Below are positions 32,229-48,070 of a DNA stretch of 64,000 bases, piece after piece (position 1 is the stretch's first letter; each line of letters begins with the position of its first letter). The position numbers and the translations under genes are program-made. The DNA lies in NCBI RefSeq assembly GCF_053078305.1, contig NZ_CP166879.1, one strand, 5' to 3'. The notes beneath the pieces were generated by a model. The model had not been told where the DNA came from. It did not search any database and worked only from the letters and a program-made list of their open reading frames with translations.

Positions 32229-32633
32229 GATCGTATGTGCCTTTATGATTGGTCTGTAGATAGTGTAGAGCAGAAAAGAAAAGGTGGAGTCAGAACAGGA
32301 TGAAAGTCGGAGGATAAATAGTCAGTTCAAGTATGGAGGATTCAGTGGTTACCACCAGGAGCTTGCAATGGGGACAGCGAATACTAACGGCAGCCACCGA
32401 TAAATTTCAAAAAAGAGCATATACCTAATATTCAACTAAACAGTGGCATCTTCAATATAATATATTAAAGCCTCCATGGAGTTACCCGGAAGGGCCTCCA
32501 TGTCCGTAATTCCTACTTATGTAGGAAATGTTGTACAGAACATTTATTATAATCCTATTCAATTATAATAATCATGCCATTATTATATTTAAACACTAGA
32601 GAGTGTCGTTGGTATTTAATGGGGGAAGGTGAG

Positions 32634-32951
32634 GTGAACAAGATAGCTGCTATATCATTAATTAGTGTTTTTCTTATGTCTGGTTGTGCTGTGCATAATG
32701 ATGAGACAAGTATCGGTAAATTTGGCCTTGCATATAAAAGTAATATTCAGCGTAAACTCGATAACCAATACTACACCGAAGCCGAAGCTTCTTTAGCCAG
32801 GGGCAGAATATCTGGTGCAGAAAATATAGTAAAAAATGATGCAGCCCATTTCTGTGTTACTCAGGGCAAAAAAATGCAGATAGTTGACCTGAAGACAGAA
32901 GGTGCAGGATTACATGGCGTCGCTCGTCTGACATTCAAATGTGGAGAGTGA
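32634..32951 (+). CDS. yegR: Small lipoprotein
   Basis: Start taken at the GTG giving MNKIAAISLISVFLMSGCAV (lipobox LMSGC), inside a longer track ORF. Confidence 0.65.
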   Translation: MNKIAAISLISVFLMSGCAVHNDETSIGKFGLAYKSNIQRKLDNQYYTEAEASLARGRISGAENIVKNDAAHFCVTQGKKMQIVDLKTEGAGLHGVARLTFKCGE

Positions 32952-33109
32952 GAATATTTTTTGGTAAGCGTCAAACATGCGCGTTCTGGTTGTGCTTAGC
33001 CGGAACCTGTGCGAGCACGATGCCAATAAGTGAAAGGCATCGTGCTATGAAGGGAAATTCTATCGATGTGGTCAATGGAAGATGGTTACCAGAGATAGGG
33101 CTTATGCAT

Positions 33110-33196
33110 AAAAAATAAGCCCGTGTAAGGGAGATTACACAGGCTAAGGAGGTGGTTCCTGGTACAGCTAGCATTTTATGGGTTATGTTTTTCAGC
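33110..33196 (-). ncRNA. cyaR: CyaR (RyeE) Hfq-dependent small RNA
   Basis: The minus strand reads gctgaaaaacataacccataaaatgctagctgtaccaggaaccacctccttagcctgtgtaatctcccttacacgggcttatttttt, which matches the CyaR sequence as I remember it, including its terminator hairpin and U-tail. Confidence 0.85.
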
Positions 33197-33280
33197 GAAA
33201 CGGATGATAACCTTAATAAATGCAGCTGTATGTGATCGGTTTCTAAGAATTTTCCATCCGGGAAAAATAATCGAAATTAA

Positions 33281-34642
33281 TCACTTACCGTGTGGGTTAC
33301 GCGTGGTTTCCCCGGAGAAATTACGCATCAGCAGAGCGTAATTGAGCTCAAGATCCTGCGGGACCGGGAGCCACACAGTATAACCATCGCCTGGTGCGAC
33401 CGGCATCGCTTCGCCTTTGGCGTTTTCCATATGCTCAAGGGTAAAGTTAATGTTGCCTTGCGGCGTCATCAGCTCAAGGCTGTCGCCAACGGAGAATTTA
33501 TTTTTCACCGCTACCGCCGCGAGGTCCCCCTTGCGCTCACCGGTAAACTCACCAACAAACTGCTGGCGGTCAGAAACCGAATAACCGTATTCGTAGTTCT
33601 GATAATCGTCGTGAGTATGACGACGCAGGAAACCTTCGGTATAGCCACGATGCGCCAGACCTTCCAGAGTTTCCAGCAGGCTGGTATCGAACGGTTTGCC
33701 CGCAGCGGCATCATCGATAGCTTTACGATAAACCTGTGCGGTGCGTGCGCAATAGTAGAAAGATTTAGTACGGCCTTCGATCTTCAGCGAATGCACGCCC
33801 ATTTTGGTCAGGCGCTCAACGTGGGCGATGGCACGCAGATCTTTCGAGTTCATAATGTAAGTGCCGTGTTCGTCTTCAAACGCGGTCATATACTCGCCCG
33901 GACGCTGGGCCTCTTCGATCATAAACACTTTGTCGGTTGGCGCGCCAATACCAAGCGTAGGCTCAACGTTTTGCACCGGAATCGGCTCGTACTTGTGTAC
34001 GATGTTGCCAACGTCATCTTCTTTACCTTCCTGTACGTTGTACTCCCAGCGGCAGGCGTTGGTGCAGGTTCCCTGGTTCGGGTCGCGTTTGTTAATGTAG
34101 CCCGAGAGCAGGCAGCGGCCGGAGTAGGCCATGCACAGTGCGCCGTGAACGAAGATCTCGATCTCCATATCCGGCACCTGATTGCGGATCTCTTCAATCT
34201 CTTCCAGCGACAGCTCGCGAGAGAGGATCACGCGGGTCAGGCCCATTTGCTGCCAGAATTTCACCGTCGCCCAGTTCACGGCGTTAGCCTGTACCGAGAG
34301 ATGGATCGGCATTTCAGGGAAGTGCTCACGCACCAGCATAATCAGCCCTGGATCGGACATAATCAGCGCATCCGGCCCCATTTCCACCACCGGTTTCAGG
34401 TCACGGATAAAGGTTTTCAGCTTGGCGTTGTGCGGTGCAATGTTGACCACGACATAAAACTTTTTCCCCAGCGCGTGGGCTTCATTGATGCCGAGCTGAA
34501 GGTTTTCGTGGTTGAATTCGTTGTTGCGCACACGCAGGGAGTAACGCGGCTGGCCCGCATAAACAGCATCTGCGCCATAAGCGAAAGCGTAACGCATATT
34601 TTTCAGCGTTCCCGCCGGGGAAAGGAGTTCCGGTTTAAACAT
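33281..34642 (-). CDS. yegQ: Peptidase U32-family protein
   Basis: 453 aa. Confidence 0.9.
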   Translation of the reverse strand: MFKPELLSPAGTLKNMRYAFAYGADAVYAGQPRYSLRVRNNEFNHENLQLGINEAHALGKKFYVVVNIAPHNAKLKTFIRDLKPVVEMGPDALIMSDPGLIMLVREHFPEMPIHLSVQANAVNWATVKFWQQMGLTRVILSRELSLEEIEEIRNQVPDMEIEIFVHGALCMAYSGRCLLSGYINKRDPNQGTCTNACRWEYNVQEGKEDDVGNIVHKYEPIPVQNVEPTLGIGAPTDKVFMIEEAQRPGEYMTAFEDEHGTYIMNSKDLRAIAHVERLTKMGVHSLKIEGRTKSFYYCARTAQVYRKAIDDAAAGKPFDTSLLETLEGLAHRGYTEGFLRRHTHDDYQNYEYGYSVSDRQQFVGEFTGERKGDLAAVAVKNKFSVGDSLELMTPQGNINFTLEHMENAKGEAMPVAPGDGYTVWLPVPQDLELNYALLMRNFSGETTRNPHGK

Positions 34643-34744
34643 AATTCTCTCGTTCTGATGACAGGTCAGATCCGCTTCACCTGATGAAGCGGTTAGGGGA
34701 GTGCCCCCACTTTAAGGGCGGGCATTGTAGCGCAATCGGCGGGT

Positions 34745-35041
34745 TTAGCTCCAGTGTAAATGTCTGGTGGCGTCCTGGTTTTGGTTAAGGATACGAATGA
34801 CGATAATTTCCCCTGGTGATTGCAGGAAATAAATTACGTGGCGTTCAAAAGGAAGAACAAAAATACCTTCGCCTAATTCAGGTCTGGGCGTACCTATATT
34901 ATTGTTACTCAGAATCTGGAGAACGTCTGAAAGATGTTCCACATATCTGTCGGCTTGTGGTTCGCCGAAATGGTGATAACTGTAATACCAGATGCCTTCT
35001 AAATCCTCATTGGCTTTTGGCATGAGTTTAATAATACGCAC
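34745..35041 (-). CDS. ParE/RelE-superfamily type II toxin
   Basis: 98 aa; N-terminus MRIIKLMPKANEDLEGIWYY resembles ParE toxins. Its start lies 2 bp after the stop of the upstream antitoxin ORF. Confidence 0.65.
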   Translation of the reverse strand: MRIIKLMPKANEDLEGIWYYSYHHFGEPQADRYVEHLSDVLQILSNNNIGTPRPELGEGIFVLPFERHVIYFLQSPGEIIVIRILNQNQDATRHLHWS

Positions 35042-35042
35042 A

Positions 35043-35294
35043 TTATTTCCTTATCCCTGCTTTCACCTTCCGTAAAAACGCGTCCTTTTCCCACGGCTGA
35101 GCTTCACCACTACTCAACCCTTCTGCAAGCATGTCACGTAATGCTTGCAGGCGAGACTCTGCTTGCTTTTCTCGAAGTAAGCGCAGTGACTCACGGATCA
35201 CTTCGCTTTGGGTGCGATAGTCGCCGGATTCAATTAAGGACTCGATAAATTCACGCAACTCATCGCCGAGATCAACCGTCATCGTTCTGGCCAT
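35043..35294 (-). CDS. ParD-like (ribbon-helix-helix) antitoxin
   Basis: 83 aa, acidic and helical (MARTMTVDLGDELREFIESLIESGDYRTQSEVIRESLRLLREKQ); sits immediately upstream of the toxin on the same strand. Confidence 0.65.
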   Translation of the reverse strand: MARTMTVDLGDELREFIESLIESGDYRTQSEVIRESLRLLREKQAESRLQALRDMLAEGLSSGEAQPWEKDAFLRKVKAGIRK

Positions 35295-35537
35295 GTTTAT
35301 GCTCTCCTGTAAGTAAAAATCTTACATCAGTGTATGTCATAAACCGGATAGCGTCACGAAAAGTATTAGAAGATATTTTGGCAGATGAACATGTTCAGGA
35401 GGATAAGCATGGAGATGTTAAACAAAGAAAGCACAATGAGTATTCATCAGTGTCCACTATTTTAATGGCGCAGGTAAATAAATAAGCGTTATTTGGAAAT
35501 AAAGCCGGACGCCAACAACCCACGCCCGGCATCGTAA

Positions 35538-35870
35538 TTACGTATTGTCTTTCACCGTCTGGCTTGTGCCATTGGCTTTAACGGAGGCAATTCCGGTTTC
35601 ACGAGATTGCGCGGTGGCATACATCTGGCTGGAGCCGATAATTTGATGATTGGCGGCTTTCAGATTGAAATAGAATTTGCCGTTGCTTGCCGTTTTTTTC
35701 TCATAGCGTTCTTCTTGCGGGCTGTTGCTACGCACCGACGCGATGCCCTTTTCCGCAGAGGCTTTTGAAGTATACAGCTCGCTGGTGAGGATAGTCTCAC
35801 CATTGCCCGCTTTTAGCACAAACCGGAACTGATTATCACTGCTCTTACTGAGTTCAAACCAACCAGCCAT
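35538..35870 (-). CDS. yegP: UPF0339-family protein
   Basis: Start taken at MAGWFELSKSSDNQFRFVLKAGNGE; shows the tandem internal repeat typical of this family. Confidence 0.8.
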   Translation of the reverse strand: MAGWFELSKSSDNQFRFVLKAGNGETILTSELYTSKASAEKGIASVRSNSPQEERYEKKTASNGKFYFNLKAANHQIIGSSQMYATAQSRETGIASVKANGTSQTVKDNT

Positions 35871-36060
35871 AATGACTCCTTGATTGAAATTGTGTATCGA
35901 AAACAGCATCTAAAGGTGCTGTTTACCGATTAAAGTATGAGCGATTTTCTGATGCCTGCCAGGGCGGAGAGATAATGTCAGTTTGCTGACCATGCGTGGG
36001 ATAATGTTGCCGGATCGGGTCTGAACGCCATCTCCGGCTAACAAAGTCATGTCGCTAAAA

Positions 36061-36783
36061 CTAAACGATGCGGCAGGCGTCGGCTTCCCAGCGGTAACCA
36101 ACGCCGTAAACGGCGCGGATAAATGACTGTTCGGCGTCGAGAGATTCCAGCTTGCGGCGCAGGTTTTTAATGTGGCTGTCGATGGTGCGGTCGGTTACTA
36201 CGCGGTAGTCGTCATAAAGATGATTGAGCAATTGCTCGCGGGAGAACACTTTTCCTGGTTCATGAGAGAGCGTTTTCAGCAGACGAAATTCCGCAGGCGT
36301 CAGGTCAAGCATTTTACCGCGCCATGAAGCCTGAAAACGGCCTTCGTCGATAATCAACGGGCTTTCAGCATCCTGTTGTTGCAACTCACGCTGCGGTTTG
36401 CAACGGCGCAAAATGGTTTTGACACGCGCTACCACTTCCCGTGGGCTGTACGGCTTGCAGATGTAGTCATCTGCGCCAATCTCCAGCCCCAGCAGGCGGT
36501 CGATCTCTTCGATTTTTGCTGTCACCATCACGATAGGAATGTCAGAAAAACGACGAATTTCCCGGCACAGCGTCAGGCCATCGGTGCCAGGGAGCATCAG
36601 ATCCAACAGGATCAGATCCGGTGGTGTCTGGCGCACATACGGCAGTACCTGATCGCCGTGACTGATAAGCGTCGGCGCATAGCTCGCAGCACGCAGATAA
36701 TCAATGAGCAACTGCCCCAGCTTCGGTTCATCTTCCACGATCAAAATACGCGGTGTGTTTTCGTCGATTGGTAACTCGGTCAT
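36061..36783 (-). CDS. baeR: Envelope-stress response regulator (OmpR family)
   Basis: 240 aa with receiver-domain motifs (LIVEDEP ... [11 protein letters not shown]) and a winged-helix C-terminus. Confidence 0.95.
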
Positions 36784-47254: not shown

Positions 47255-47400
47255 GATTTCAGCGGGATGCTGAAACGGGAAAGCCCCTCCCGAGGAAGGG
47301 GTCTTAAATAAGGAAAGGGTCATGATGAAGATACTCATCATCGTGGTGCTCTTAGTGATTAGCTACCCAGCATACTAAGACTACCAGGGCGGGGGAAACC
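47255..47400 (-). ncRNA. Sib-family antisense RNA, copy 1 (ends approximate)
   Basis: Placed by analogy: Sib RNAs are transcribed opposite to, and fully overlap, the ibs ORF. Ends cannot be fixed from sequence alone. Confidence 0.4.
47322..47378 (+). CDS. Ibs-family type I toxin, copy 1 (18 aa: MMKILIIVVLLVISYPAY)
   Basis: Mini-ORF preceded by aaggaaagggtc; the peptide has the characteristic Ibs hydrophobic sequence. Confidence 0.8.
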   Translation: MMKILIIVVLLVISYPAY

Positions 47401-47582
47401 CCGCTCTACCCTCACTCCTGAAAGTATGCCTTCACGTTCAGAATGTCAATCCGCAGGCTTTGCAGTCTGCGATCCTGCCAGCAAATATTCTTTGCGAGAC
47501 GTTACGCAATAATAACACAGGAAACTATTTTATCTACGCGTTAGCGATAGACTGAATTCAGGGCGAAAGGAGGTAAGCCGAC

Positions 47583-47728
47583 GATTTCAGCGGGACGCTG
47601 AAACGGGAAAGCCCCTCCCGAGGAAGGGGCCTTAAATAAGGAAAGGGTCATGATGAAGTGGATCATCATCGTGGTGCGCTTAGTCATAAGCTTCCCGGCT
47701 TACTAAGACTACCAGGGCGGGGGAAACC
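47583..47728 (-). ncRNA. Sib-family antisense RNA, copy 2 (ends approximate)
   Basis: As copy 1. Confidence 0.4.
47650..47706 (+). CDS. Ibs-family type I toxin, copy 2 (18 aa: MMKWIIIVVRLVISFPAY)
   Basis: Same position within repeat unit 2. Confidence 0.8.
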   Translation: MMKWIIIVVRLVISFPAY

Positions 47729-47919
47729 CCGCTCTACCCTCACTCCTGAAAGTATGCCTTCACGATAAGATTGTCAATCTGCAGGCTTTGCAGTCTGCGA
47801 TCCTGCCAGCAAATATTCTTTGCGAGTCGTTACGCAATAATCATAGAGGGAACTATTTTGTTCACGCGTTAGCGATAGACTGCATTCAGGGCGAAAGGAG
47901 GTAAGCCGACGATTTCAGC

Positions 47920-48070
47920 GGGACGCTGAAACGGGAAACACTCTCCCGGAGAAGAGGGCTTTTAATAAGGAAAGGGTTATGATGAAGCACGTCATCATAC
48001 TGGTGATACTCTTGGTGATTAGCTTCCAGGCTTACTAAGAACACCAGGGGGAGGGGGAAACCTCTCCCTA
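47920..48070 (-). ncRNA. Sib-family antisense RNA, copy 3 (ends approximate)
   Basis: As copy 1. Confidence 0.4.
47989..48048 (+). CDS. Ibs-family type I toxin, copy 3 (19 aa: MMKHVIILVILLVISFQAY)
   Basis: Same position within repeat unit 3. Confidence 0.8.

Follow-up and report, generated by a model that had tools for sequence, protein, structure and literature searches.

Between yegP and yegQ lie two small genes that very probably form an ordinary chromosomal type II toxin–antitoxin operon, encoding a ParD antitoxin (PF03693) and a ParE toxin. They were studied in a window of 64,000 nucleotides of E. coli DNA (contig NZ_CP166879.1, assembly GCF_053078305.1), where both are on the minus strand. 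The antitoxin gene, parD (35294..35043), encodes 83 aa and runs from an ATG start at 35294 to a TAA stop at 35045–35043. The toxin gene, parE (35041..34745), encodes 98 aa, starts with GTG and ends with TAA, and the gap between the parD stop and the parE GTG is exactly one base (35042). The flanking genes, yegQ/trhP (34642..33281) and yegP (35870..35538), are also on the minus strand. Two small, adjacent and co-oriented genes with the antitoxin first and a 1 nt gap have the layout of a type II toxin–antitoxin operon. The initial annotation of this region described two small same-strand ORFs 1 bp apart within 34700–35330, between yegQ and yegP; both ORFs are real and both flanks are as described. 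It also placed the pair directly next to the CyaR sRNA, which is incorrect, as CyaR (33198..33113; Rfam score 100.7 bits) lies beyond yegQ, about 1.5 kb away. An Rfam scan of positions 32500–36500 gave no match to a structured RNA besides CyaR.

The module itself is already known. The exact ParE and ParD sequences are present in public databases, each in at least 1000 contigs, under the names 'RelE/ParE family toxin' and 'ParD family antitoxin', and RefSeq names both proteins correctly. Searches of the literature by accession and by gene neighbours found no publication on this yegP–yegQ locus. Neither protein matched the defence-system models of PADLOC.

The antitoxin and its start codon

ParD scores 69.2 bits against the Pfam model ParD_antitoxin (PF03693; cut-off 21, E = 4.3e-19), with residues 1–78 aligned to profile positions 1–76, and 88.4 bits against TIGR02606 (cut-off 46.2, E = 2.3e-25). 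It matches seven ParD chains in the PDB, the best of which is PrpA (7YCS; E = 1.9e-27, ~60 % identity). The N-terminal part is a ribbon-helix-helix (RHH) domain: residues 2–53 align with the crystallised RHH fragment of PrpA (residues 2–54) with an E value of 8e-18, and the generic RHH_1 model gives 18.6 bits, slightly under its cut-off of 20.5. The curated profile matches and the alignment to solved ParD complexes bear out the proposal that the upstream ORF is a ParD/RHH antitoxin. Its earlier description as acidic and helical is only roughly right, as the protein has a pI of 5.5 and a net charge of about -1.

The automatic annotation of parD differs between alleles. PGAP gives a 98 aa ParD that starts at an upstream ATG in the common allele and calls the gene 'frameshifted' in the window's allele; this flag was found in both of the annotated genomes with the window's allele that were checked (XH990 and O55:H7 DEC5E). 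We rejected the upstream start. It lies within the conserved promoter/operator, has no ribosome-binding site and is out of frame both in the window's allele and in E. whittamii. It also disagrees with the homologues and with both family profiles, all of which begin at MARTMTV. The start of ParD, ATGGCCAGA, is common to the plasmid and E. whittamii homologues, and there is a Shine–Dalgarno sequence, GGAGAG (35302..35307, minus strand), 7 nt upstream of the ATG. At this site the common E. coli allele has GGCGGG, with one base fewer. Because the profiles, the homologues and the ribosome-binding site all point to the ATG at 35294, this is the true start of parD. The gene itself is intact, and its flagging as a pseudogene is an artefact of annotation.

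The toxin

ParE scores 51.3 bits against the Pfam model ParE_toxin (PF05016; cut-off 23, E = 1.8e-13), with residues 4–90 covering positions 1–88 of the 89 in the profile. Both ORFs are therefore above the curated thresholds of the Pfam families that had been suggested for them. A search of NCBIfam with the toxin gave no match at E ≤ 0.01. In the PDB, the sequence matches of the toxin are ParE proteins only, namely five solved toxins: PrpT (7YCS), M. tuberculosis ParE1, Caulobacter ParE1, V. cholerae ParE2 and Mesorhizobium ParE; the ParD chains matched by the antitoxin are the partners of these toxins. PrpT is the best of these (E = 2.3e-12, 32 % identity).

An AlphaFold model of the toxin was built from 11 homologues and has a mean pLDDT of 90. 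The order of its elements is beta-alpha-alpha-beta-beta-beta, with an N-terminal strand (residues 3–6), two long helices (8–25 and 27–46) and three strands (60–65, 68–74 and 78–86), followed by a 4-residue turn (91–94). When this model was compared with the PDB using Foldseek, ranks 1–23 were all ParE-type structures with TM scores of 0.65–0.87, the top score being that of PrpT, and structures of RelE, YoeB and YafQ appeared from rank 24 onwards (TM 0.5–0.66). The conserved residues of the family are kept. The profile, the matches to solved complexes and the predicted fold agree with the claim that the downstream ORF is a ParE-like toxin and, taken together, indicate that the 98 aa protein is a ParE and not a RelE-type RNase, with DNA gyrase as its putative target.

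Members of the ParE family are described as targeting gyrase, in the case of V. cholerae ParE2 (VcParE2) via an alpha-hairpin. Trp25 of this hairpin is a key gyrase-contact residue of VcParE2, and the position is weakly conserved across the family. Phe25 of the toxin, likewise aromatic, aligns with Trp25, and PrpT also has Phe there. The effect of Phe25 is uncertain, since only a Tyr substitution of Trp25 kept full toxicity in VcParE2.

Candidate promoter and likely operator

There is a candidate parDE promoter upstream of the genes (35329..35357, minus strand), in which GTGACG (35357–35352) and TACACT (35334–35329) are separated by a 17 nt spacer. It matches the consensus at 8/12 positions, which is under the threshold of the scanner, and the consensus scan of positions 34500–36100 of the window gave no promoter-like site on the minus strand. 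We aligned the promoters of eight copies of the module, three from Escherichia chromosomes and five from plasmids (of Klebsiella, E. coli, Enterobacter and Salmonella). All of them except that of the Enterobacter plasmid fit a promoter of the form (T/G)(T/G)GACG-17-TA(A/C)ACT. The exception lacks the GACG of the -35, which the other seven retain, and the A-ACT of the -10 occupies the corresponding positions in all eight.

The same alignment points to an operator. The motif ACTGA-(T/C)GTAAGA-N6-CTTA(C/T)A is invariant or nearly so in all eight promoters, and the sequences flanking it have diverged. In the window this element (35308..35331, minus strand) reads ACTGA-TGTAAG-ATTTTTA-CTTACA and contains the inverted repeat TGTAAG/CTTACA. 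Its conservation across diverged promoters suggests that the palindrome is the likely operator for ParD, and the candidate promoter would put it just downstream of the -10. Its core, TGTAA, resembles the motif bound by PrpA, TTTG(T/A)AAT.

The inserted segment and its distribution

The genes lie in an accessory segment of 772 bp (34734..35505) that stands in place of ~24 bp of the ancestral spacer between yegP and yegQ, as defined by alignment with the empty sites of O157:H7 EDL933 and K-12. The initial annotation had suggested an accessory insertion of ~600 bp; it was right about the insertion and underestimated its size. On the left, the segment begins 11 nt beyond the stop codon of parE, and on the right it extends to the foot of the terminator stem of yegP. 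Its G+C content is 42.7 %, compared with 50.4 % for the window. The upstream part (35295..35505; 211 bp) is non-coding and AT-rich (35 % G+C) and holds the candidate promoter and operator. Two 1 bp indels and one 13 bp indel distinguish the two E. coli alleles in this part, and a plus-strand ORF of 51 aa (35330..35485) was rejected as a gene because indels between the two alleles break its frame.

The ends of the segment have neither a target-site duplication nor terminal inverted repeats, and no ORF for a recombinase was found within the 772 bp; we therefore rejected the possibility that the module is the cargo of a transposon or IS element. The search for repeats at the segment ends gave short two-copy matches only, among them a 17 nt inverted match (82 %) between the 3' end of parE and the yegP terminator, and these were taken as chance.

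The module is not a core feature of E. coli. The initial annotation placed no genes between yegP and yegQ in K-12, and the yegP–trhP spacer of MG1655 is indeed empty (146 bp). When the interval was compared across 5426 complete E. coli genomes, it showed a presence/absence polymorphism: the parDE segment is at the site in 1843 (34 %), always as a single chromosomal copy, the spacer is empty in 3182 (59 %) and about 400 have other content. The window's allele (≥99 % identity) is found in 99 genomes and the second allele (95–99 %) in 1744. The other content includes a 5.3 kb island of four genes in SF-166 and an IS3 element in BKQWHE; HS-01 was left out because its region is garbled, with many homopolymer runs, and was taken as an assembly artefact. 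The module is present in O55:H7 and absent from O157:H7 EDL933.

For other species, species-representative genomes were scanned with YegP as the query. There is a short empty spacer in E. albertii, Citrobacter, Kluyvera and Lelliottia, and E. albertii has an identical ~24 bp filler, parts of which are also conserved in Citrobacter. Since the outgroups are empty and the filler is kept, the empty site is the ancestral state and the polymorphism reflects an insertion here rather than a deletion elsewhere. In E. whittamii the site holds an intact pair, and in two other Escherichia representatives parD is missing and parE is reduced to 3' fragments. The insertion is thus old, being shared with E. 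whittamii and degraded in these two lineages, and the module is maintained in some Escherichia lineages and decaying in others. Its presence in 34 % of genomes, the empty outgroups and the low G+C content are as expected of a horizontally acquired, accessory type II module.

Purifying selection acts on both genes: comparison of E. coli with E. whittamii gives pN/pS values of 0.03 (ParD) and 0.12 (ParE). The two E. coli alleles show six differences in the genes, none of which changes an amino acid, and the toxin protein is identical. Synonymous divergence is about 0.15 for parDE, compared with 0.54 for yegP and 0.24 for yegQ; these values rest on small counts, and the low value for parDE hints at later exchange between the species.

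These data point to a history in which 772 bp of AT-rich foreign DNA entered an ancestor of Escherichia after the split from E. albertii. The parDE module now segregates, present or absent, at one fixed site; homologous recombination via the conserved flanks has probably spread it, and selection keeps it intact in some lineages.

Possible effect of the insertion on yegQ/trhP

The empty site of K-12 contains a promoter-like sequence just upstream of yegQ, TTTACC-17-TACAAT, detected by a consensus scan in which 0.2 sites were expected by chance. The predicted -10, TACAAT (34729..34724, minus strand), is retained in the window, and the predicted -35, TTTACC, is within the ~24 bp replaced by the segment. 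The insertion thus removes the predicted -35 of the yegQ/trhP promoter. There is no intrinsic terminator between parE and yegQ; a hairpin at 34672–34692 was considered and rejected as it has no U-tract, and the spacer shows no exceptional fold (z = -0.96). With the predicted -35 replaced, no other promoter-like site and no terminator, read-through from the parDE promoter may transcribe yegQ/trhP in strains that carry the module.

Proposed mechanism and related systems

We infer toxicity, neutralisation, the gyrase target and operator binding from homology to characterised systems. One promoter just upstream of parD would drive both genes. A ParD dimer, formed via the N-terminal RHH domain, would bind TGTAAG-N7-CTTACA near the -10 and repress the operon, as suggested by the comparative conservation of this element. 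By homology, the C-terminal part of ParD would wrap and neutralise ParE, probably in a ParE:ParD2:ParE heterotetramer like that of PrpT/PrpA. The weak GTG of parE, one base past the parD stop, probably couples translation of the two genes and would keep the toxin below the antitoxin. If ParD were lost, free ParE would, as in other members of its family, poison DNA gyrase via the alpha-hairpin, leading to DNA breaks, SOS induction and filamentation.

The closest characterised relative, and the best solved match for both proteins, is PrpT/PrpA of the Pseudoalteromonas rubra plasmid pMBL6842 (7YCS, 7YCU, 7YCV and 7YCW), for which the structure of the heterotetramer has been described (PMC9731233). 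Protein sizes are similar, with 98 aa for the toxin and, for the antitoxin, 86 aa in PrpA compared with 83 in ParD, the antitoxin gene is first in both and the N-terminal strand of PrpA, RTMTVD, is the same as that of ParD. Overproduction of PrpT in E. coli causes growth inhibition and filamentation, and PrpA neutralises PrpT and represses the promoter (PMC7848731). [quoted passage not shown] Additionally, PrpA controls plasmid copy number via the iterons of the origin, for which the E. coli chromosome has no known counterpart.

Other ParE-type systems are more distant. ParDE1 of Caulobacter (3KXE), ParDE2 of V. cholerae (7R5A) and ParDE1 of M. tuberculosis (8C24) share the Pfam families, fold and gene order, but the identity between the toxins is just 26–31 %, the oligomeric states of the complexes vary and the genomic contexts are different. 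PaaA2–ParE2 of E. coli O157:H7 (5CW7 and 5CZF) also has a ParE-type toxin, but its ParE2 is only 16–17 % identical, its antitoxin is unrelated and it is a three-gene prophage module. ParDE-I of the IncI1 plasmid pJIE512b is a further example of a ParE-type toxin in E. coli; ParE-I has 93 aa (282 bp gene) and is reported to be 15 % identical to Caulobacter ParE1 (PMC6614396).

Alternative explanations

The PGAP name 'RelE/ParE family' is compatible with a toxin that acts as a RelE-like, ribosome-dependent mRNA endonuclease rather than as a gyrase poison, as ParE and RelE belong to a common superfamily and Pfam model and RelE-type structures were also recovered by Foldseek. We regard this as highly improbable, given that the 23 structures ranked above them are ParE-type and score higher, up to 0.87, and that the toxin matches ParE toxins alone when PDB sequences are searched. 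Additionally, its pI is 5.8, whereas ribosome-binding RelE toxins are strongly basic. According to the reviewed literature, a full C-terminal helix is essential for RelE activity and absent in ParE, and the last helical element of our model is the 4-residue turn at 91–94. The partner of the toxin is also a ParD of PF03693, the second most common ParE-associated antitoxin family. A different question is whether this ParE is still active. The module could be domesticated or inert, with a ParE that is no longer toxic to E. coli, and it could be hitch-hiking or be kept for another purpose that is served by ParD or by the operon promoter, for example in driving yegQ/trhP. Chromosomal ParE toxins that are not measurably toxic in E. 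coli do exist (PMC6813445), the loss of the predicted yegQ -35 and the lack of a terminator mean that read-through could matter to the host, and loss of the toxin is evidently possible, as two Escherichia lineages retain mere remnants. Purifying selection on the toxin, the identical protein in both E. coli alleles and the retention of the residues conserved in the family argue against inertness, however, and make it very unlikely. In both remnant lineages, moreover, parD is gone and only the 3' part of parE is left, as would be expected if loss of the antitoxin alone were lethal while the toxin is active.

The relatives of the module suggest a further role, which would add to the basic toxin–antitoxin mechanism and not replace it. 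Outside Escherichia chromosomes, the nearest relatives are ParD/ParE pairs of Enterobacteriaceae plasmids, most of which are typed as conjugative, and 617 plasmid records encode a ParD that is 80–95 % identical to the chromosomal protein. We found no characterisation of these plasmid pairs in the literature searched. In K. aerogenes pC9_001 (WP_151585807/WP_151585804) ParD is 90 % identical and ParE about 65 % (63/96 residues). The DNA-binding domain of ParD (residues 1–54) is 100 % identical to that of pC9_001 even though synonymous sites are saturated (pS about 1), and chromosomal and plasmid promoters have their operator element in common, which makes cross-regulation biochemically plausible. 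The pC9_001 copy, the only one examined in context, is about 1.4 kb from the gene for the RepB replication initiator, an arrangement that resembles prpAT, whose antitoxin binds the iterons of the origin (PMC7848731). It is thus conceivable that the main role of the module today is interaction with plasmids, chromosomal ParD acting in trans on the related parDE of conjugative plasmids to repress their promoters, possibly to neutralise their ParE (anti-addiction, an established concept; reviewed in PMC7354431 and PMC7167474) or to disturb copy control of the PrpA type. However, the chromosomal and pC9_001 toxins share only about 65 % of their residues, and about 7/28 positions, plus the tail, differ in the C-terminal, toxin-binding part of ParD. 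Cross-neutralisation is uncertain given these differences, as ParD/ParE pairs are often highly specific. The gene arrangement also differs, in that ParD has 86–88 aa and a 14 nt overlap with parE in the three annotated plasmid copies, whereas the chromosomal genes are 1 nt apart. We consider plasmid interaction rather unlikely as the main role.

Significance

That the pair is an ordinary chromosomal ParDE operon carries little weight alone, as it is one more such module and the pipelines annotate it properly. The analysis does correct a recurring call of an antitoxin pseudogene in RefSeq. The locus is also a polymorphism at a fixed site with intact, empty and decayed states, and this makes it suitable for studying how chromosomal toxin–antitoxin modules are gained, retained and lost. 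According to a population study, E. coli acquires ParDE-family modules before mutations to quinolone resistance arise; this locus may or may not be one of them.

The module may affect its host in two ways that can be tested, through cross-talk with related modules on plasmids and through a change in the transcription of yegQ/trhP. We think it unlikely that both apply, that is, that ParD acts in trans on plasmid parDE and that yegQ/trhP has come under the auto-regulated parDE promoter. If this were true, ParD would perhaps blunt post-segregational killing by plasmids or their copy-number control, and the third of E. coli that carries the module would be set apart by its plasmid compatibility and its regulation of trhP.

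Coding status of parD

The RefSeq annotation pipeline (PGAP) labels the parD gene of the window's allele a 'frameshifted' pseudogene (window 35295-35340; same region in XH990, L001 2944-3241, and O55:H7 DEC5E, L090 910-1207). The PGAP reference ParD model takes as its start codon an upstream ATG whose frame matches parD in the commoner allele only, and the window holds an intact 83-aa ORF from the ATG at 35294.

Relatives of the pair are found on plasmids, where ParD proteins of 80-95% identity are present in 617 records. Comparison of the window (34745-35294) with the locus on Klebsiella aerogenes plasmid pC9_001 (L091, 2248-2797) shows that residues 1-54 of the two ParD proteins are identical despite saturated synonymous sites, and that the toxins share approximately 65% identity. 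In some E. coli plasmid records the match is limited to ParD residues 1-51 and no gene is annotated there.

Distribution and decay of the module

In two representatives of non-coli Escherichia species, Escherichia sp. E1V33 (L010, 1354-1700) and 'E. coli' SCPM-O-B-8794 (L012, 4331-4785), all that is left of the module between yegP and yegQ is the 3' part of parE, disrupted by frameshifts, and parD is absent. These fragments are what remains of the same insertion after decay. Within E. coli, O55:H7 DEC5E (L090) carries the module as the window's allele, whereas O157:H7 EDL933 (L002) has an empty spacer of the ancestral type. This suggests that allele replacement through recombination has taken place in the O55:H7/O157:H7 lineage. 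The copy of the region in HS-01 (L007, 2362-3243) is full of long homopolymer runs and aligns well in its promoter-proximal part only; this garbled copy probably arose during assembly or polishing of the sequence.

Approximately 7% of complete genomes have neither parDE nor an empty site. Alternative cargo is seen in the same yegQ-yegP spacer of E. coli strains SF-166 and BKQWHE. The former has a 5.3 kb island of four genes (L005, 1677-7003), encoding PcfJ-domain, DUF1266, DUF4034 and hypothetical proteins, in which the PADLOC defence-system models found no matches; the latter has an IS3 element (L006, 6044-7450).

Surrounding region

On the cyaR side of yegQ (window ~33199-33280 and downstream of CyaR; K-12 equivalent, L008 4184-4821), the P2-like remnant PR-X (ogrK, yegZ) adjoins cyaR in K-12. 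In the near-identical XH990 the yegR-yegQ gap is only ~330 bp, so PR-X appears to be lacking in this strain. The XH990 annotation places a tandem array of three type I Ibs toxin genes upstream of mdtA (L089, 32723-33439), ~12 kb from the ParDE pair; their counterpart in the window, projected from XH990, would lie at ~47300-48040.

Possible effect on the predicted yegQ/trhP promoter

The yegQ/trhP leader of ~90 nt (window 34643-34733, minus strand) shows almost no variation over the range from E. coli to Citrobacter and is far more conserved than the adjoining 3' region of yegP. It contains a perfect 8-bp hairpin (34672-34692), has an unremarkable folding energy and matched no Rfam family.

The module joins the remnant of the predicted yegQ/trhP promoter (window 34724-34733; K-12 equivalent, L008 2559-2587) at position 34734. 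The insertion has replaced the -35 element (TTTACC) of the predicted promoter, and the -10 element (TACAAT) is retained. There is no terminator in the parE-yegQ interval and therefore, in strains that carry the module, transcription from the parDE promoter may read through into yegQ.
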